Below are positions 32,123 through 37,075 of a stretch of DNA of 57,352 bases, piece by piece. Position numbers and translations under genes: made by a program. The stretch covers positions 1-57,352 of the forward strand of contig JAHYJI010000005.1 of the NCBI GenBank assembly GCA_019429145.1, read 5' to 3'. This stretch comes from Coriobacteriia bacterium. Its GTDB lineage: Bacteria > Actinomycetota > Coriobacteriia > Anaerosomatales > SLCP01. The notes beneath the pieces are model-generated. The model had not been told where the DNA came from. It did not search any database and saw only the letters and a program-made list of their open reading frames with translations. How positions within the stretch are numbered: position 1 is the first letter of the stretch; each line of letters opens with the position of its first letter.

Positions 32123-32172
32123 TGGTATATTCTTTGCTAGGCGCGCCGCCTTCTTCTGGCGGCCGATATGCA
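32123..32172 (+). promoter_or_regulatory. Candidate promoter region of rpoN: two GG-N10-GC sites, one overlapping an extended -10
   Basis: TGGTATA-ttct-TTGCT (32123-32138), which also reads TGgTATATT, and TGGCGGC-cgat-ATGCA (32157-32172). Confidence 0.5.
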
Positions 32173-32188
32173 CCGGGGAGGGTTCTCA

Positions 32189-33583
32189 GTGGAGCTCGGG
32201 CAGAGGACCGAACTCAGACAGAAGGTGACACTCTCGCCCCAGGTCTACCAGGGCCTGAGTATCCTCGCCATGCCCATCTTCGAGCTCCAGCAGCTGGTCG
32301 AGGCCGAGATGCTGGAGAACCCGCTTCTCGAGGTCGACGAGATCGAACCCGAGCCGGGCGAGGACGACGAGACGCGTCAGGAGAGCGCGGAGGAGGAGCG
32401 CGCCTGGGACGAGTGGCTCGACATGTACGACGAGCTCGACTCGGCGGAGTACAGTGGTCCGCGCGATCCCAACGAGGAGGCGGCCAACACCGAGGAGTTC
32501 GTCGGCGGCGCGGTGAGCTTCTCTGACTACCTCGAACAGCAGCTGGCGATGATGGAACTCAGCGACGAGGTGGACGCGGCCGCGCGTGCCGTGATCGGTT
32601 CGCTCGACGCCGACGGGTTCTTCAAGGGTGACTGTGCTGAGGTCGCCGCGCTCGTCGGTGTGACGACCGCGAACGCCGAGGAGGGCCTGCGCGTCGTGCA
32701 GCAGCTCGATCCTCCGGGCGTGGGTGCCCGTAGCCTGACCGAAGCGCTCGTCATCCAGATGGACTTCCTCGGCCTGGAGGACCCGCTGCTGGAGGCGATC
32801 ATCAACGGCCATCTCGACGACGTCGCCGCGAACCACTTCCGCAAGATCGCCCGGGCACTCAAGGCCACCGAACCGGAGGTCCGTGAAGCGGTCGCTGTGC
32901 TGCGCTCGCTGAATCCCCGGCCGGCCGGCGCCTACTCGCCCGGCCCCTCACCGGGCTACATCGTTCCCGACGTGACGATCCGTCGCTTCGACGACGAGTG
33001 GCTGATCATCCCGAACAGCGAGTCCGTGCCCACCCTGCGGGTCAGCCCGCGCTACCGGTCGATGCTGCGCTCGGGTTCGAACGCCGACGAGGACACCCGC
33101 CGCTATCTCAAGGACAAGATCCGTTCCGCGGAAAGCTTCATCAAGAACGTCGACCGTCGCAAAGACACCGTGAGCCGGATCACCGGCATCATCCTGGAGG
33201 TCCAGTCGGAGTTCTTCGAGGACGGTAAGGGTCCGCTTCGCCCGCTTCGCCTCGAGGACGTCGCGGTCGAGCTGGGCGTCCATCTCTCCACGGTCAGCCG
33301 GGGCGTGACCGGCAAGTACATGGCGACCCCGTACGGGCTCTTCGAGCTGAAGCACTTCTTCGCCGGCGGGTACCGGACCACCACCGGTATGGACATCGCG
33401 TCCACGAGCATCAAACAGAGACTGAAGGAGCTCGTGGCGGAGGAGGACGCGGAGAAGCCGCTCTCGGACCAGAAGCTCGCCGAGCTGCTCTCCGACGAGG
33501 GCGTGAGCGTCGCACGCCGTACGGTGGCCAAGTACCGCGAGGAGCTGCACATCGAACCTTCCTGGGCGAGGAGACGACGGTGA
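32189..33583 (+). CDS. rpoN: RNA polymerase sigma-54 factor
   Basis: Q/L-rich region I (RQKVTLSPQ...ENPLLE), QQLDPPGVGAR, HTH HLSTVSR, PLSDQK, RpoN box ARRTVAKYRE. GTG start after GGGGAGG. Confidence 0.96.
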   Translation: MELGQRTELRQKVTLSPQVYQGLSILAMPIFELQQLVEAEMLENPLLEVDEIEPEPGEDDETRQESAEEERAWDEWLDMYDELDSAEYSGPRDPNEEAANTEEFVGGAVSFSDYLEQQLAMMELSDEVDAAARAVIGSLDADGFFKGDCAEVAALVGVTTANAEEGLRVVQQLDPPGVGARSLTEALVIQMDFLGLEDPLLEAIINGHLDDVAANHFRKIARALKATEPEVREAVAVLRSLNPRPAGAYSPGPSPGYIVPDVTIRRFDDEWLIIPNSESVPTLRVSPRYRSMLRSGSNADEDTRRYLKDKIRSAESFIKNVDRRKDTVSRITGIILEVQSEFFEDGKGPLRPLRLEDVAVELGVHLSTVSRGVTGKYMATPYGLFELKHFFAGGYRTTTGMDIASTSIKQRLKELVAEEDAEKPLSDQKLAELLSDEGVSVARRTVAKYREELHIEPSWARRRR

Positions 33584-35103
33584 CCGAGCAGCCCAGGTCG
33601 GCCGAGGAGGCCGAGGCTCAGCGCAGGGCGGTGCGGCTGCGAGCGGTCGTCATCGTCGTTGCGATGCTCGCGGTGGTCACCACGCTGCACCTGTACACGA
33701 ATGTCGCCGGTGGTGCCGTCATGCTGCACCTGCTCTACCGGCGCCTCTACTACGTCCCGATCCTTTACGCGGCCTTCGTCTTCGGCAAGAAGGGCGGGTT
33801 GCTTACCGCGCTTGCCGCCTCGGTACCGTTCGCCATCAACGCCCAGATCACCCTCGGAGGATTCACCGGACGGACAATCGACAGCAGCCTCGAGGTATTC
33901 ATGTACTTCGCCATCGGCGTTCTCTTCGGCGCACTGCGGGACATGGAGGAGCGCAAGACGGCGGACCTCCGGCAGGTGAGCGCGCGGCTCGAGGAAGCGT
34001 ACAAGAAGCTCGAGGAGCGCGCCATCCAGCTCATCAACATCCAGGACTACACGCAGTCCATCCTCCGCTCGATCACATCCGGTGTACTCACCATCGGCCC
34101 TGATGGCTCGATCACCACAGCTAATCCCGCGGCCGAGCGCCTGCTCGGCATGTCGGAGTACGAGATGGTGCCCAAGAGCATCGGCGCGCTCTTTCGCGAC
34201 GACGGGGGACTGGAAGGTGACGTCAGGAAGGTGCTGTCCGGGCGCATCCCGCTCACCCTGCGGGAGGTCAGGATGGTGACCGACGCCGGTCACGACATCC
34301 ACGTTCAGGCCTCGACGTCGCGAATGCGCGCGGTCGGCGGGCGGATACTCGGGGCGGTCGTCACCATCGAGGACGTCTCGGAGGTCAAGGCGCTCACCGA
34401 GCAGCTCATAAGGGCCGACCGCCTTGCAGCGATGGGGGAGCTCACCGCCGGCGTGGCGCACGAGGTCCGCAACCCGCTCGGTGTCATACGCGCGAGCGTG
34501 CAGCTGCTCGAGGACGCGGACTGCGACGCCGAGCGCGTCCGTCAGGCCGGCGAGGTCATGAAGCAGGAGATCGACCGGCTCGACAAGGTGATCAAGGCGC
34601 TGTTGGACTTCGGCCGGCCGAGCAAGCCAACGATGCGGGCAACCGACGTCTCAAGCGTGCTCGGGGACGTCGTGCTCTTCACGAGTCGTTTCGCCGCGCA
34701 GTCCGATGTCACGATCTCCGAGGAGTACGCGCCCGATCTCCCTCGCGTCACGGCCGATCCGGACCAGCTGAAGCAGGTGTTCCTCAATCTGATCACCAAT
34801 GCGGTTCAGTCAATGGAGGAGATCGGCGGAGAGATCCTCCTCTCCGCGCACGAGCAGGGAGACTTCGTGGTGGTGACCCTCTGCGATACCGGCCCCGGCA
34901 TACCCGCCGAGGACCTGGGAAAGGTGTTCGATCCGTTCTACTCGACCCGAGACGCCGGGACCGGTCTCGGGCTCACCATCGTCCACCGCATCATCGATGA
35001 GCACGATGGGCATATCGAACTGGAGAGCAGTCCCGAGGGCACGACGATCCGGATCTCTCTCCCGACCGCATTCGACGACGAACCGATGGGGGGCGCTCGA
35101 TGA
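33580..35103 (+). CDS. Membrane PAS histidine kinase (NtrB/ZraS/AtoS-like)
   Basis: TM sensor HLLYRRLYYVPILYAA, PAS, H-box AHEVRNPL, N-box, DTGPG, GTGLGL. GTGA overlap with rpoN. Confidence 0.93.
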   Translation: MTEQPRSAEEAEAQRRAVRLRAVVIVVAMLAVVTTLHLYTNVAGGAVMLHLLYRRLYYVPILYAAFVFGKKGGLLTALAASVPFAINAQITLGGFTGRTIDSSLEVFMYFAIGVLFGALRDMEERKTADLRQVSARLEEAYKKLEERAIQLINIQDYTQSILRSITSGVLTIGPDGSITTANPAAERLLGMSEYEMVPKSIGALFRDDGGLEGDVRKVLSGRIPLTLREVRMVTDAGHDIHVQASTSRMRAVGGRILGAVVTIEDVSEVKALTEQLIRADRLAAMGELTAGVAHEVRNPLGVIRASVQLLEDADCDAERVRQAGEVMKQEIDRLDKVIKALLDFGRPSKPTMRATDVSSVLGDVVLFTSRFAAQSDVTISEEYAPDLPRVTADPDQLKQVFLNLITNAVQSMEEIGGEILLSAHEQGDFVVVTLCDTGPGIPAEDLGKVFDPFYSTRDAGTGLGLTIVHRIIDEHDGHIELESSPEGTTIRISLPTAFDDEPMGGAR

Positions 35104-36461: not shown

Positions 36462-36477
36462 TGGCATGGCTGTTGCA
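36462..36477 (+). promoter_or_regulatory. Sigma-54 -24/-12 promoter directly downstream of the bEBP gene
   Basis: TGGCATG-gctg-TTGCA, exact spacing, ~42 bp before ATG 36519. Confidence 0.8.
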
Positions 36478-36518
36478 CCCTGCGTGACATCGCTGCGCAT
36501 CCACGCCGGGAGTGAAGT

Positions 36519-36863
36519 ATGGCGCGCGAACGGGACAGGAAAAGGACGGTTCTCGCCGGTCTGTCATTCGGCCTCTTGCTCCTGTTCTCCGTAGCCGCGC
36601 TCCTGCTTTCGCTCGTGCGGTCTGCGCCTGCGGCACCGGCATGGGGCTTGGCACTGATTGTGGGCACGCTGTGTGCCCTGGTGGCTCTGCTTCTGTTAGA
36701 GCCCGGATCGGAGTCCACCGATGCCGATCCCGTGGTATCGTCATGTGCCGCGTGCGGCAATCCCATGCTTGCCGAGTGGCGACTCTGCCCGCACTGCGGG
36801 CAGATGCTGGAATGCGACATGTCCGCACCGATGCAAGGAGATCGCACCCCATGGCTGACCTGA
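36519..36863 (+). CDS. 2-TM membrane protein with C-terminal zinc ribbon
   Basis: Two hydrophobic helices, then CAACG...CPHCG. Confidence 0.75.
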   Translation: MARERDRKRTVLAGLSFGLLLLFSVAALLLSLVRSAPAAPAWGLALIVGTLCALVALLLLEPGSESTDADPVVSSCAACGNPMLAEWRLCPHCGQMLECDMSAPMQGDRTPWLT

Positions 36864-37075
36864 AGACCGTTCACCTGACGACGACGGGTATGCACTGCGG
36901 CTCGTGCGCGATGCTCATCGACATGACACTCGGGGACCTCGAGGGCGTCTCCGAGGTCAAGACCGACTACGCCTCCGGAGCCACGATGGTTACGTTCGAC
37001 CCCGAGAGGATCTCCGTGGACGATCTCGTTCAGTCCGTCCGATCTGCAGGGTACGAGGCTGCCGTTACGGCGTAG
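36851..37075 (+). CDS. Heavy-metal-associated (CopZ-like) chaperone
   Basis: GMHCGSC, 74 aa, AGY C-terminal motif; AAGGAG RBS. Confidence 0.88.
   Translation: MADLKTVHLTTTGMHCGSCAMLIDMTLGDLEGVSEVKTDYASGATMVTFDPERISVDDLVQSVRSAGYEAAVTA

Follow-up and report, generated by a model that had tools for sequence, protein, structure and literature searches.

CorSR of Myxococcus xanthus is described as a copper-responsive sigma-54 two-component system whose regulator has the domain order REC-Sigma54_activat-HTH_8 (PMC3707914). Its regulon, the curA operon, is reported to include a cupredoxin protein and the CopA P-type ATPase, and the corSR genes lie inside the regulated cluster, alongside a second copper regulator (PMC3707914). 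The locus analyzed here, within a window (the whole stretch of DNA that was analyzed) of 57,352 nucleotides from a Coriobacteriia bacterium, shares the regulator architecture and the nearby second copper regulator, and some relatives carry cupredoxin and CopA genes in the corresponding operon. The sensors differ, as CorS is described with a signal peptide, one transmembrane (TM) segment, a periplasmic sensor and a HAMP domain (PMC3707914), whereas about four TM segments and a PAS domain were recognized in the present kinase. In M. xanthus, moreover, rpoN is unlinked and activators are numerous; here, rpoN heads the operon that encodes the kinase and the sole activator. CorSR is likened to the module by its published description.

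The domain order of the kinase and of the activator (bEBP) is also that of AtoS/AtoC and ZraS/ZraR. The best NCBIfam models were AtoS (352 bits against a cut-off of 646) and ZraS (201 against 479) for the kinase, and AtoC (490 against 714), NtrC (436 against 559) and ZraR (399 against 760) for the activator. On these scores, membership in the AtoS/AtoC orthologous group was rejected, as was membership in the ZraS/ZraR group, for which the kinase also has no periplasmic domain. The targets of both systems differ from those found here.

Circuits of a similarly small scale are CtcB/CtcC of Chlamydia and Hk2/Rrp2-RpoN of Borrelia. As here, a single sigma-54 works with a single two-component activator and the genome is small, but both organisms are diderm pathogens, their outputs differ and, to our knowledge, their rpoN stands apart from the kinase-regulator operon. 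Francke et al. (2011) list both genera as having sigma-54 with one activator. In the Xanthomonadaceae rpoN loci L103-L106, a bEBP gene lies within ~1 kb after rpoN, and RpoN3 of Cereibacter sphaeroides is described as an rpoN paralogue with a cognate activator. In both cases, the linked rpoN is an extra copy beside a housekeeping rpoN and many activators, with no kinase between and no 4-nt overlaps, whereas here it is the only copy. The linkage of rpoN to an activator, which the original prediction had contrasted with the usual proteobacterial locus, is not unique to this module and occurs in Xanthomonadaceae and also in other Coriobacteriia.

Gene content of the module and its flanks

The module and the two genes that follow it are as follows.

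32,168-33,583, + strand: rpoN (sigma-54), with Pfam AID, CBD and DBD, TIGR02395 and an RpoN box; single copy in the genome
33,580-35,103, + strand: sensor histidine kinase with PAS, HisKA and HATPase_c (Pfam) and about four TM segments
35,100-36,449, + strand: bEBP with REC, AAA+ (GAFTGA) and HTH_8 (Pfam); sole bEBP of the genome
36,519-36,863, + strand: znr, whose 114-aa product spans the membrane twice and has a C4 zinc ribbon (CxxC-N12-CxxC) on the cytoplasmic side
36,851-37,075, + strand: copZ-like HMA metallochaperone gene, encoding 74 aa with the MxCxxC site GMHCGSC

In the ORF reading, the first three genes are coupled by 4-nt overlaps, the GTG of the kinase gene overlapping the TGA of rpoN and the ATG of the bEBP gene overlapping the TGA of the kinase gene. 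This gene order had been predicted from the sequence together with the GTGA and ATGA overlaps, the RpoN box, the GAFTGA motif and a TGGCATG-N4-TTGCA element 12 nt past the bEBP stop, and all were found as described.

By its sequence, the rpoN product can be assigned to the sigma-54 (RpoN) family. The Sigma54_AID, CBD and DBD domains (PF00309, PF04963 and PF04552) all scored over cut-off, with E-values of 1e-12 to 8e-55, the TIGR02395 equivalog scored 401 bits (cut-off 277), and the RpoN box reads ARRTVAKYR in the translation. The gene may alternatively start at the GTG at 32,189, which is preceded by GGGGAGGG. The kinase has the H-box AHEVRNPL. Its sensor part is membrane-embedded, without an extracytoplasmic or periplasmic domain, and its only conserved His residues are H37 and H50 (in 31 of 40 sequences). 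Since the kinase sequence contains no Cys and no obvious metal-ligand motif, direct copper sensing is unsupported by it.

In the bEBP, Pfam detected Response_reg (PF00072), Sigma54_activat (PF00158, 241 bits, 5e-72), an AAA lid (PF25601) and HTH_8 (PF02954). The translation shows GAFTGA, the Walker A motif GESGTGKE, LFLDEIG and VLD..., and the REC acceptor Asp, Walker A/B, GAFTGA and Fis-type HTH together place the protein, as judged from these motifs, in the NtrC class. The znr product matched Zn_ribbon_3 at 22.7 bits, under the cut-off of 27, and had no match in an NCBIfam search, hence no curated family; homologues occupy the same position in most relatives. The copZ product combines the HMA fold (PF00403, 47.5 bits) with MxCxxC and can be classed as a CopZ-type HMA metallochaperone. 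The NCBIfam CopZ models reached 49.6 against a cut-off of 91, and its metal specificity was therefore left unassigned. A copZ-like gene lies downstream of the bEBP gene in 33 of 36 relatives' loci.

The flanks contain the following features.

28,759-28,774, no strand: perfect palindrome ATACCCCATGGGGTAT, a candidate CsoR operator
29,769-30,074, - strand: csoR-family metal-sensing repressor gene (PF02583, 91 bits, over cut-off)
29,871-31,106, + strand: CDF cation-efflux gene (Cation_efflux, ZT_dimer), upstream of rpoN in most relatives
31,090-32,085, + strand: EamA-family transporter gene (Pfam), syntenic
37,092-37,120, + strand: sigma-70-like promoter TTGCCT-17-TATAAT before ccdA, its spacer holding the palindrome ATACCCCGTGGGGTAT (37,102-37,117)
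37,159-37,875, + strand: ccdA/DsbD_TM thiol-disulfide transporter gene (Pfam), syntenic
37,950-41,171, + strand: HAMP-GAF-GAF-SpoIIE (PP2C) phosphatase gene (Pfam), a member of the syntenic block that nothing ties to the sigma-54 regulon

The true start of the CDF gene is probably later than 29,871, because the ORF overlaps csoR, which is the only PF02583 match in the genome. The palindrome ATACCCCATGGGGTAT is flanked by a CbiX/ferrochelatase-like gene, which is divergent, and by a thioredoxin gene (both by Pfam), and the window contains two perfect palindromes of this type against 0.02 expected. They resemble CsoR boxes, which makes them candidate CsoR operators. A palindrome of the ATACCCCGTGGGGTAT type lies directly after the bEBP gene in L056, a relative's locus without znr and copZ.

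Proposed circuit and its signal

We consider it moderately probable that the module is the sigma-54 system that Anaerosomatales inherited vertically from their ancestor, a minimal circuit with copper or thiol stress as its probable signal. The membrane-bound PAS kinase would sense the stress and phosphorylate the REC domain of the activator, whose AAA+ ring would remodel sigma-54 holoenzyme pre-bound at a few -24/-12 promoters. The predicted outputs are the adjacent znr-copZ operon, to which several families add genes for a CopA P1B-ATPase and a DsbD/cupredoxin protein, and from which transcription may continue into ccdA; a ~97-nt small RNA in one or two copies; and a clpB-type disaggregase gene. 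In the host strain, two duplicated TPR-NHL-multihaem cytochrome operons would have been recruited as well. rpoN would share a transcript and translational coupling with the AtoS/AtoC-like pair, which is the only one or nearly so, and the holoenzyme would probably feed back on this operon through a TGGTAT-N5-TTGCT element upstream of rpoN. The whole circuit would run in parallel to the CsoR repressor encoded in the same block.

To what would the kinase respond? Most likely, judging from the gene neighborhood, to copper(I), to thiol-reactive metal stress or to the resulting protein damage. The metal or thiol theme of the original prediction fits the context of csoR, the two palindromes, thioredoxin, CopZ and CcdA, and csoR, the palindromes and the relatives' CopA tie the circuit to copper and thiol stress; CopA, cupredoxin and DsbD_2 lie inside the operon in L030, L033, L046 and L051. 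Could the same circuit instead respond to stress of a more general kind (membrane, proteotoxic or redox), in the manner of ZraSR and Psp, with copper left to CsoR and copZ as one output? We regard this as possible but distinctly less likely. The outputs kept most widely besides copZ, namely the clpB-type disaggregase and the anti-Shine-Dalgarno-type small RNA, are consistent with such a signal, as are the membrane-embedded, Cys-free sensor, the separate CsoR with its own candidate operators in the block, and the HspR-operator-like repeat that abuts the clpB site. On the other hand, the promoter nearest the regulator would drive a metallochaperone, with a full CopA operon in several families, csoR and the CDF exporter flank the block in most relatives, and CorSR is a precedent for a copper-responsive sigma-54 two-component system.

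Conserved -24/-12 elements and the predicted regulon

Two elements of the sigma-54 type lie next to the module itself.

36,462-36,477, + strand: predicted sigma-54 promoter TGGCATGGCTGTTGCA (TGGCATG-N4-TTGCA), 12 nt past the bEBP stop; weight-matrix score 21.3
32,123-32,138, + strand: -24/-12-like element TGGTATATTCTTTGCT (TGGTAT-N5-TTGCT), a candidate site of autoregulation 45 nt ahead of the rpoN ATG

Sigma-54 promoters have the consensus TGGCAC-N5-TTGCW, and transcription from them starts ~12 nt past the GC and depends on rpoN and an activator. The element after the bEBP gene has GG and GC 10 nt apart in this context, with a same-strand gene downstream. The motif recurs 5-81 nt past the bEBP stop in 32 of 35 loci of relatives whose sequence covers this region, or in 33 of 36 with the L054 tail counted in, and L024, L027 and L056 are the three without it. 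Because it is kept at one position across relatives while the flanks vary, the motif is more than chance, and the target promoter that had been predicted here can be called real on the grounds of conservation. Upstream of rpoN, TGG[CT]A-N6-TTGC is present in 34 of 36 relatives' loci, and the other two have CGGTAT.

The 2.07 Mb genome was scanned with a weight matrix that is partly circular, having been trained on strict matches (training minimum 17.0). Six sites scored 20.2-26.3, and the next site scored 14.7. One lies at znr-copZ, one at the clpB-type gene, two at the copies of the small RNA and two at multihaem cytochrome operons specific to the strain. The znr-copZ, small-RNA and clpB promoter classes are conserved across families. 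A pattern search of five diverse genomes found the znr and small-RNA sites in all five and the clpB site in four. The regulon predicted from these sites is small, yet it extends beyond the promoter next to the module, as conserved predicted sigma-54 promoters also precede the small RNA and the clpB-type gene.

The strict clpB motif is present in 24 of 29 upstream regions, with one changed base in three more. An inverted repeat on one side and a sigma-70-like promoter on the other (TGTCAG...GGGTATACT, downstream) enclose the site, which could have a role other than that of a sigma-54 promoter. The repeat that it abuts, TGAGT-N7-ACTCA, is similar to the HspR operator of the heat-shock response. 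Neither clpB nor the small RNA is specific to copper as an output. Sites at TPR-NHL multihaem cytochrome loci were found in only 3 of 30, two of them the host's own.

No upstream activator site common to the three promoter classes was found. Dyad and k-mer enumeration gave nothing above shuffled sequences in the small-RNA set (27 sequences) and only the TGAGT-N7-ACTCA dyad in the clpB set (22 sequences). The znr promoter sits just past the bEBP gene, so that any activator site there would fall inside the bEBP coding region.

It seems very unlikely that the znr site alone is real and that the small-RNA, clpB and rpoN-upstream sites are sigma-70 elements, operators or chance matches. Strict-pattern counts are only about twice those of the reversed control (28 against 14 over five genomes; 7 against 4 in the host genome), TGGTATATTCTTTGCT overlaps TATATT, a -10-like hexamer, clpB has the separate promoter-like element downstream, and one conserved match (C33 type) probably marks where a coding sequence begins. 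However, GG and TTGC are fixed at canonical spacing in each class while the five bases between them and the flanks vary, and in the TATA-less TGGTACG variants upstream of rpoN the spacing to TTGCT is unchanged. Furthermore, the conserved small-RNA body starts 12-14 nt past the motif in 30 of 30 loci, indirectly in line with a sigma-54 start, and this RNA is confined to the order with the module, its covariance model matching 66 of 67 Anaerosomatales genomes against 0 of 83 other Coriobacteriia genomes.

The small RNA

In all 30 fetched loci and in the paralogue, [T/C]GGCAY-N5-TTGCT precedes the small RNA, with unconserved flanks. The RNA, which on sequence comparison appears as previously undescribed, is ~97 nt long, and two hairpin loops expose a C-rich, anti-Shine-Dalgarno-like sequence. 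Of the 30 base pairs predicted for its fold, four stem from the promoter as an artefact and 26 belong to the RNA itself. Compensatory change was seen at 14 of the 30 pairs, every one of them among the 26.

The CCUCCUCCC-motif RNAs (6C of actinobacteria; ar14 and CcsR, or "cuckoo", of alphaproteobacteria; Xanthomonas sX13) similarly carry C-run loops able to pair with G-rich ribosome-binding regions. A weak full-length Rfam alignment puts both C-rich loops in register with those of ar14. The 6C loops are reported to bind mRNA targets directly (PMC6486639). The C. glutamicum 6C RNA is described as driven by SigA/SigB, whereas the small RNA here has a -24/-12 promoter. Membership in ar14, CcsR, sX13 or 6C was rejected on Rfam scores below gathering: ar14 scored 27 against 58.8, CC1840 24.8 against 50, CcsR1 10.3 and sX13 9.7, and 6C was not among the families listed. 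The best 6C-like match of the genome lies elsewhere (C84) and scored 33.7 against 47.

Host, distribution and inheritance

The host is a MAG of class Coriobacteriia, order Anaerosomatales, a subsurface group within Actinomycetota. The relatives are titled Coriobacteriia or Anaerosomatales bacterium, in agreement with the predicted actinomycetote. The expected rarity of sigma-54 in the phylum also held: rpoN was found in only 12 of 401 sampled Actinomycetota genomes, the host included, and only five of these are outside Coriobacteriia. Francke et al. (2011) describe the sigma-54 system as absent from Actinobacteria. Within Anaerosomatales, rpoN is present in 135 of 142 other genomes, and in 39 of 41 close relatives.

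A single rpoN and a single true bEBP were counted in the host genome, as a single-activator circuit would have it. Among 41 Anaerosomatales genomes (G000 included), bEBP matches at E<=1e-20 numbered none in one genome, one in 32 and two in eight, the single match of G016 and the second of G001 being fragments. A lineage with standard rpoN, or a genome with many bEBPs and no conserved gene order, had been named as speaking against the original prediction; rpoN proved standard within the order and the gene order, both flanks included, conserved, so that the portable and possibly horizontally acquired character of the circuit is not supported.

The block CDF-eamA-rpoN-HK-bEBP-znr-copZ-ccdA-PP2C was syntenic in 38 of 38 loci examined, as far as the contigs reach, and the synteny of both flanks spans at least 24 families. 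The GC content is flat, with no anomaly. In an RpoN tree, which was a quick search with thin outgroups, Anaerosomatales form one clade (SH-aLRT 99) within a mostly actinomycetotal clade. Their sister (SH-aLRT 95) is family f62, another lineage of the phylum, in which the three genes overlap likewise and have different neighbors. Outside Actinomycetota, the best RpoN match reaches no more than 36-41% identity. The least likely explanation, and a very improbable one, is therefore the portable one-sigma, one-activator, one-promoter cassette of recent horizontal transfer, along the lines of the portable, possibly horizontally acquired circuit that had been suggested: the rarity of sigma-54 in Actinomycetota, the self-sufficiency in principle of three overlapping genes and the f62 trio (moved, or kept while its flanks changed) would suit it, but recent transfer is already contradicted by the near-universal rpoN and syntenic flanks of the order, the lack of a GC shift, the single clade with its distant outside matches, and the unlinked conserved targets (small RNA, clpB), which indicate integration in the host network.

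Across the relatives, the 4-nt overlap is possible between rpoN and the kinase gene in 31 of 38 loci and between the kinase and bEBP genes in 20 of 36.

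The rpoN-Kinase-Activator Block

Contig C73, which makes up the window, belongs to an assembly of 2.07 Mb (143 contigs, 98.5% complete) and carries a compact plus-strand block from 29.8 to 42 kb, with csoR on the minus strand. The features are as follows:

28759–28774: second perfect copy of the 16-nt palindrome listed below, between a CbiX/ferrochelatase-like gene and a thioredoxin gene
29769–30074, minus strand: csoR, the only CsoR-family gene of the genome
5′ of rpoN, plus strand: CDF exporter gene, then EamA transporter gene
32123–32138, plus strand: −24/−12-like element TGGTATATTCTTTGCT, 45 nt 5′ of the rpoN ATG
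32168–33583, plus strand: rpoN, its stop overlapping the kinase start (GTGA)
33580–35103, plus strand: histidine kinase, its stop overlapping the activator ATG (ATGA)
35100–36449, plus strand: enhancer-binding response regulator
36462–36477, plus strand: −24/−12 motif TGGCATGGCTGTTGCA, 12 nt past the activator stop, with canonical GG-N10-GC spacing
36519–36863, plus strand: znr, a zinc-ribbon gene with two transmembrane (TM) segments
36851–37075, plus strand: copZ
37092–37120, plus strand: sigma-70-like promoter TTGCCT-17-TATAAT between copZ and ccdA, its spacer holding a palindrome
37102–37117: perfect 16-nt palindrome ATACCCCGTGGGGTAT (ATACCCC-NN-GGGGTAT), in the spacer of the ccdA promoter
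37159–37875, plus strand: ccdA
37950–41171, plus strand: HAMP-GAF-GAF-SpoIIE/PP2C phosphatase gene
41184–41975, plus strand: STAS and HATPase_c_2 fusion (anti-sigma antagonist/kinase-like)

The ORFs, overlaps, domains and 36462–36477 motif of the original prediction were all found in their places. RpoN has its three Pfam domains complete, scores 401 bits against the NCBIfam equivalog (cut-off 277) and carries the box ARRTVAKYR, and the activator retains the acceptor Asp, Walker A and B, GAFTGA and a Fis-type HTH. The GC content of the block (0.65–0.66) is similar to that of the remaining window. The annotated rpoN start (ATG 32168) may be wrong: GTG 32189 sits after a ribosome-binding site, GGGGAGGG, and alignments of relatives open at residues 2–8. 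The PP2C phosphatase and the STAS fusion form a partner-switching pair (37950–41975) that is syntenic with the sigma-54 block order-wide.

Host and Distribution of Sigma-54

Scanning species-representative genomes for RpoN, we recovered 44 close relatives with 66–96% identity, all of them MAGs. Most are labelled Coriobacteriia, Coriobacteriaceae, Actinomycetota or Actinobacteria, a few otherwise (Actinomycetes, Eubacteriales), and two, including the closest (96% RpoN identity), Anaerosomatales. The next matches fall to 36% in an Oscillospiraceae MAG and to 31–34% in Xanthomonadaceae, Leptospira and Enterococcus. Because the close RpoN relatives carry these labels, we place the host in the order Anaerosomatales (formerly OPB41) of the class Coriobacteriia, and it is thus an actinomycetote, as had been suspected.

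How rare is sigma-54 in this phylum? A passage in Francke et al. (2011) states that Actinobacteria "lack the Sigma-54 system", and the presumed rarity holds for the phylum, where 12 of 401 sampled genomes match at E ≤ 1e-10 and only five of these lie outside the class (coded families f62, f54 and f33). It does not hold within the order, where rpoN is the rule: Sigma54_DBD is present in 39 of 41 close relatives, this genome counted, and, in a class-wide sample, in 135 of the 142 further Anaerosomatales genomes. The other Coriobacteriia families gave 12 matches in 158 genomes, namely 10 in family f27 (10/33), one fragment and one weak match. In family f5, the genomes G017 and G040 have no rpoN match, probably through incomplete assembly, because G040 has an enhancer-binding activator (bEBP) and G017 keeps a −24/−12 motif, TTGGCATGTACGTTGCT, 5′ of its small RNA.

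Sigma-54 thus occurs in a whole order and in at least three further coded actinomycetotal families, always in minimal form, and the view of Actinomycetota as a phylum without sigma-54, found in reviews and textbooks, needs revision. In the limited body of literature searched, no paper turned up that deals with sigma-54 in Coriobacteriia or Anaerosomatales, or with the circuit, the fusion, the minimal regulon or the small RNA described here. The paper describing Anaerosomatales reports, in the accessible portion of its text, multihaem cytochromes and iron or sulfur respiration, and the words "sigma" and "copper" do not occur in that portion.

Inheritance of the Circuit

To compare gene order, nine window proteins were searched by tblastn against 38 rpoN loci of 38 genomes. 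The order rpoN-kinase-bEBP is kept in 36 of the 38, and the remaining two end at contig edges. Most loci have the CDF and EamA genes upstream and copZ (33/36), ccdA and the PP2C gene downstream. With start choice favouring overlap, a 4-nt start/stop overlap is possible between rpoN and kinase in 31/38 loci and between kinase and bEBP in 20/36, the others ranging from −26 to +19 nt.

In a preliminary RpoN tree (65 sequences, quick maximum likelihood, LG+G4, SH-aLRT support only, one row dropped), the 17 Anaerosomatales rows form one clade (99), to which two f62 rows are sister (95). Together, they lie inside a clade of 26 actinomycetotal rows (95), and the 30 Bacillota rows are separate (90). 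Outside the actinomycetotal clade are three f27 rows, without a resolved place; on the tree, the f27 RpoNs form two groups.

The sigma-54 system is inherited by the whole order Anaerosomatales. The idea of a portable, recently acquired cassette is contradicted by the order-wide rpoN, the syntenic flanks, the flat GC content and the single RpoN clade. Indeed, the rpoN-kinase-bEBP unit is older than the order, because f62 (a different class of the phylum; genomes ~2 Mb) carries a matching unit (overlaps of 4 and 8 nt) with a sister RpoN. Identities are 38–41% for RpoN, 42% for the kinase and 55–58% for the bEBP, and the neighbours differ, with an FtsX/MacB-type ABC system in f62. The unit could be an ancestral actinomycetotal trait with wide loss or the product of an ancient transfer; the outgroups for this question were Bacillota, four Xanthomonadaceae and one Leptospira.

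One Sigma Factor and One Activator

The genome has a single rpoN and one Sigma54_activat match at 244 bits, in line with a circuit of one sigma factor and one activator in an actinomycetote; four other matches score at most 31 bits, and the one of these that was checked is a Clp-type ATPase. Among 41 genomes of the order, this one included, bEBPs at E ≤ 1e-20 number none in one, one in 32 and two in eight, where the single match of G016 and the second of G001 are fragments. Other actinomycetotal carriers have 1, 3, 1, 1 and 2 bEBPs, so that carriers in the phylum have 0–3 activators per genome overall and 1–3 where any is detected, compared with 5–6 in each comparison genome (a Bacillota MAG, Enterococcus and Luteimonas). 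In f27 (other Coriobacteriia with 3–4 Mb genomes; loci L142–L155), rpoN is 33–36% identical and is followed within ~1 kb by a REC-less bEBP, the sole one in the two genomes counted (G153 and G147).

The interpretation in the original prediction was half right: the actinomycetote circuit of one sigma and one activator stands, as does its metal-linked neighbour, znr-copZ lying directly 3′ of the activator; the portable, recent and single-target character does not. No component is of a new kind. New are the small RNA, the minimal size of the regulon, the phylum concerned and the way in which rpoN is fused to the only kinase and activator it has.

A Small Conserved Regulon

The strict pattern TGGCAY-N5-TTGCW occurs seven times in the genome, compared with four times for the reversed pattern and 0–5 times for other spacers. 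A weight matrix built on 84 orthologous sites of relatives (training minimum 17.0) gave six sites scoring 20.2–26.3 and all else at or below 14.7. One lies before znr, two before small RNA copies (contigs C78 and C69), one before a clpB-type gene (C127) and two before cytochrome operons (C21 and C75). Five complete or near-complete genomes of five other families have 28 pattern matches against 14 for the reversed control, with znr in 5/5, the small RNA in 5/5 (eight copies) and clpB in 4/5. Since these classes recur across families, we take znr-copZ(-copA), the small RNA and clpB as the conserved core regulon, to which the circuit's own rpoN operon probably also belongs, judging from its upstream element. 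The conserved sites before the small RNA and the clpB-type gene refute the notion of a single target.

Downstream of the activator, TGGCAY-N5-TTGCA lies 5–81 nt past the stop in 32 of 35 loci (33 of 36 once the last 140 nt of locus L054 are included), with flanks that are not conserved. The exceptions are L027, where copZ follows the activator with only a ribosome-binding site between, L024, which has an insertion, and L056, which is without znr and copZ. At least four loci of other families (L030, L033, L046 and L051) have a longer operon in the order znr, DsbD_2-cupredoxin, copZ, cupredoxin, CopA-type P1B ATPase (1–3 HMA domains) and ccdA, the ATPase being the only ORF checked in L030.

The clpB-type site is 125 nt 5′ of the gene, in the upstream region C127:1490–1640 (locus L139/L218). 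Among upstream regions of at least 200 nt from 29 relatives (L219–L247), 24 have the strict motif and three a single change (TTGCG or TGGTAC). The architecture is fixed: a TGAGT-N7-ACTCA repeat, 3–5 nt, the −24/−12 motif, ~45 nt and a conserved sigma-70-like TGTCAG...GGGTATACT. The repeat resembles the HspR operator, and the arrangement suggests dual heat-shock and sigma-54 control of the clpB-type gene.

A search for an activator motif shared by 27 small RNA and 22 clpB upstream regions (by eye and by dyad and k-mer enumeration; upstream regions only, with the near-identical same-genus rows L157, L158, L160, L180, L219 and L221 removed) found none. With about three conserved promoter classes, this is among the simplest natural sigma-54 regulons and hence a tractable model, in an order with cultured members (Anaerosoma tenue and Parvivirga hydrogeniphila).

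A Small RNA Family Behind Sigma-54-Type Promoters

The C78 and C69 sites are each followed by a conserved non-coding element of ~97 nt, which a BLAST search with the C78 copy found in 38 of 41 genomes. The motif [T/C]GGCAY-N5-TTGCT precedes the element in 30 of 30 fetched loci and in the paralogue, at a variable distance of 12–14 nt from the conserved body, and the sequence further upstream is unconserved. RNAalifold predicts an outer helix around a hairpin with the loop CUCUCCUCCCCCCUCA, followed by a terminator, whose hairpin has the loop CCCCCCA, and a U-run. The prediction has 30 pairs: 26 belong to the RNA, and four, an artefact, fall in promoter columns; compensatory changes occur in 14, all among the 26. 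A covariance model without the promoter has matches, mostly two per genome, in 66 of 67 further Anaerosomatales genomes, and it has matches in 0 of 83 genomes of other Coriobacteriia families. One copy usually lies 5′ of a WYL/WCX (PafBC-like) gene.

In Rfam, the element has a full-length likeness, below threshold, to ar14 (27 vs 58.8 bits) and to CC1840, with only traces of similarity to CcsR1 and sX13. All four are regulators of the C-rich-loop or CCUCCUCCC type, and the element shares the C-rich loops. Membership in the 6C RNA family was rejected: Rfam does not list 6C for the element, and the best 6C-like match is elsewhere in the genome (C84:320–402, L279; 33.7 vs 47 bits, a cut-off that the Corynebacterium glutamicum control also falls under). 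Ungapped complementarity of loop 1 to ribosome-binding regions reaches 11 nt at four sites and 10 nt at eight (~1,850 candidates), a result too unspecific to name a target.

By promoter, predicted structure and distribution, the element is a previously undescribed family of putative sigma-54-type small RNA. It offers a handle on riboregulation in the deep-branching Coriobacteriia and would extend the recurring C-rich-loop, anti-Shine–Dalgarno design to a sigma-54-controlled case in Gram-positives. At locus L316 (G357, f62), a short piece of non-coding sequence, with CAUCCUCCU and a GC-rich terminator-like hairpin, comes after a strict −24/−12 motif and may be an analogous sigma-54-driven small RNA.

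Copper, Thiols and the Signal

Could the circuit respond to metals? The context holds copZ, copA in relatives, cupredoxins, DsbD-like proteins, a thioredoxin gene, csoR and a CDF exporter gene, and for this reason we tentatively read the signal, within the overall model of a vertically inherited minimal circuit, as metal or thiol stress, e.g., copper(I), with confidence a little short of even. ClpB and a translation-damping small RNA would suit protein damage from such stress. A copper-responsive, sigma-54-dependent precedent is CorSR of M. xanthus (PMC3707914).

General membrane or proteotoxic stress is the other candidate signal, a serious competitor though rather less likely. The kinase has about four N-terminal TM segments without a sizeable external loop, a PAS domain and an H-box. 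Across 40 sequences, its first 285 residues conserve RxYxxPxxY...FGxxGG in the membrane part, G113, G117, D121 and the PAS core; a conserved cysteine is absent there, and a pair of histidines recurs in no more than 31 of the 40, so that the kinase itself gives copper sensing no direct support. Pfam, NCBIfam and Atlas supplied no name for the sensor; in Atlas, the N-terminal domain falls in unnamed clusters only (0.94), one of which has DUF4118 on 28% of its members.

The copper and thiol reading also takes in a second regulatory layer. The palindromes, of which two are observed and 0.02 expected in the window, resemble known CsoR boxes. Their excess and the presence of the sole CsoR-family gene in the block point to a CsoR regulon that probably runs parallel to the sigma-54 circuit; with the sigma-54 site there too, the block reads as an island for copper and thiol homeostasis under two layers of regulation. 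Together with the strain's multihaem cytochrome operons, the copper/thiol link matters for the handling of metals by these bacteria, which are abundant in the subsurface and respire iron and sulfur.

A Possible Feedback on the rpoN Operon

The element upstream of rpoN begins at 32123, where the interval of the original prediction also starts. TGG[CT]A-N6-TTGC is present 5′ of rpoN in 34 of 36 loci, the other two having CGGTAT. Most of these elements include TATAYT, like −10 regions elsewhere in these genomes. Six loci have TGGTACG, several of them with a separate TATACT- or CATAAT-like hexamer ~8 nt upstream, and TTGCT is kept at an unchanged distance, so that conservation of the GG/GC geometry does not depend on the −10-like hexamer. 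We read the element as a candidate holoenzyme-binding site on the circuit's own promoter; none was seen in f62. Its effect could be positive feedback or occlusion of a sigma-70 promoter, and other rpoN or ntr operons provide examples of each.

Could sigma-54 here be the inducible, limiting part of a self-amplifying stress switch with a small RNA output, rather than a constitutive sigma? We put this forward as a speculative and, on balance, unlikely proposal. The −24/−12 element of the rpoN operon would overlap a basal sigma-70 promoter and, since the operon carries its own element, activation would raise sigma, sensor and activator together, a self-raising regulator operon like those of ECF sigma/anti-sigma pairs. 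The order-specific small RNA, usually in two copies, would be a main output: its C-rich loops would act at the ribosome-binding sites of many mRNAs to damp translation, and ClpB and copper export would meanwhile repair the damage. If true, sigma-54 would drive a post-transcriptional stress programme in a Gram-positive phylum from which it was believed absent, perhaps as the remnant of an ancestral actinomycetotal system that f62 shares. With rpoN physically joined to the single kinase and activator, the locus offers a natural test of a sigma factor under feedback control.

Strain-Specific and Minor Sites

The C21 and C75 sites lie behind an identical 37-nt AT-rich segment and before an operon encoding a TPR-NHL propeller and an MtrC/MtrF-like multihaem cytochrome. 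The two loci (C21:9998–11300 and C75:7643–8709; L135 and L136) share an identical 125-nt 3′ end of the upstream dCache gene and an identical 47-nt promoter segment, with a diverged spacer between, and C75 ends within the repeat; from these sequences, they are a recent duplication or gene conversion. G003, the closest same-genus relative, is without a close orthologue (best 30% identity). Multihaem cytochromes were rejected as a core output: 27 of 41 genomes have TPR-NHL(-cytochrome) operons, and a sigma-54 promoter (matrix ≥ 15) stands before only 3 of 30 loci, two of them the duplicates of this genome. Because related operons almost never have the promoter, the cytochrome output is strain-specific.

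A strict match of the C33 type (also at L191 and L194) was set aside, as it looks like a conserved coding start after a −10 element, and the C24 and C28 sites score below the matrix training range. At C24:5446 (minus strand) and L207 (G018), from different families, a −24/−12-like motif (TTGCG in this genome, strict in G018) precedes a DUF1284 gene, which may be a minor regulon member. In the window, TGGCAAAGGGTTTGCA (55812–55827; matrix score 12.3, under the training range) lies 66 nt 5′ of a Zn_peptidase_2 gene (55878–56546). Finally, an identical 16-mer, TGGCACTGGGATTGCT, occurs in L205 (G031) and L213 (G030), again from different families, and in L205 it precedes a gene that reads, by eye only, like an M50/RseP-type protease (HEGGH).
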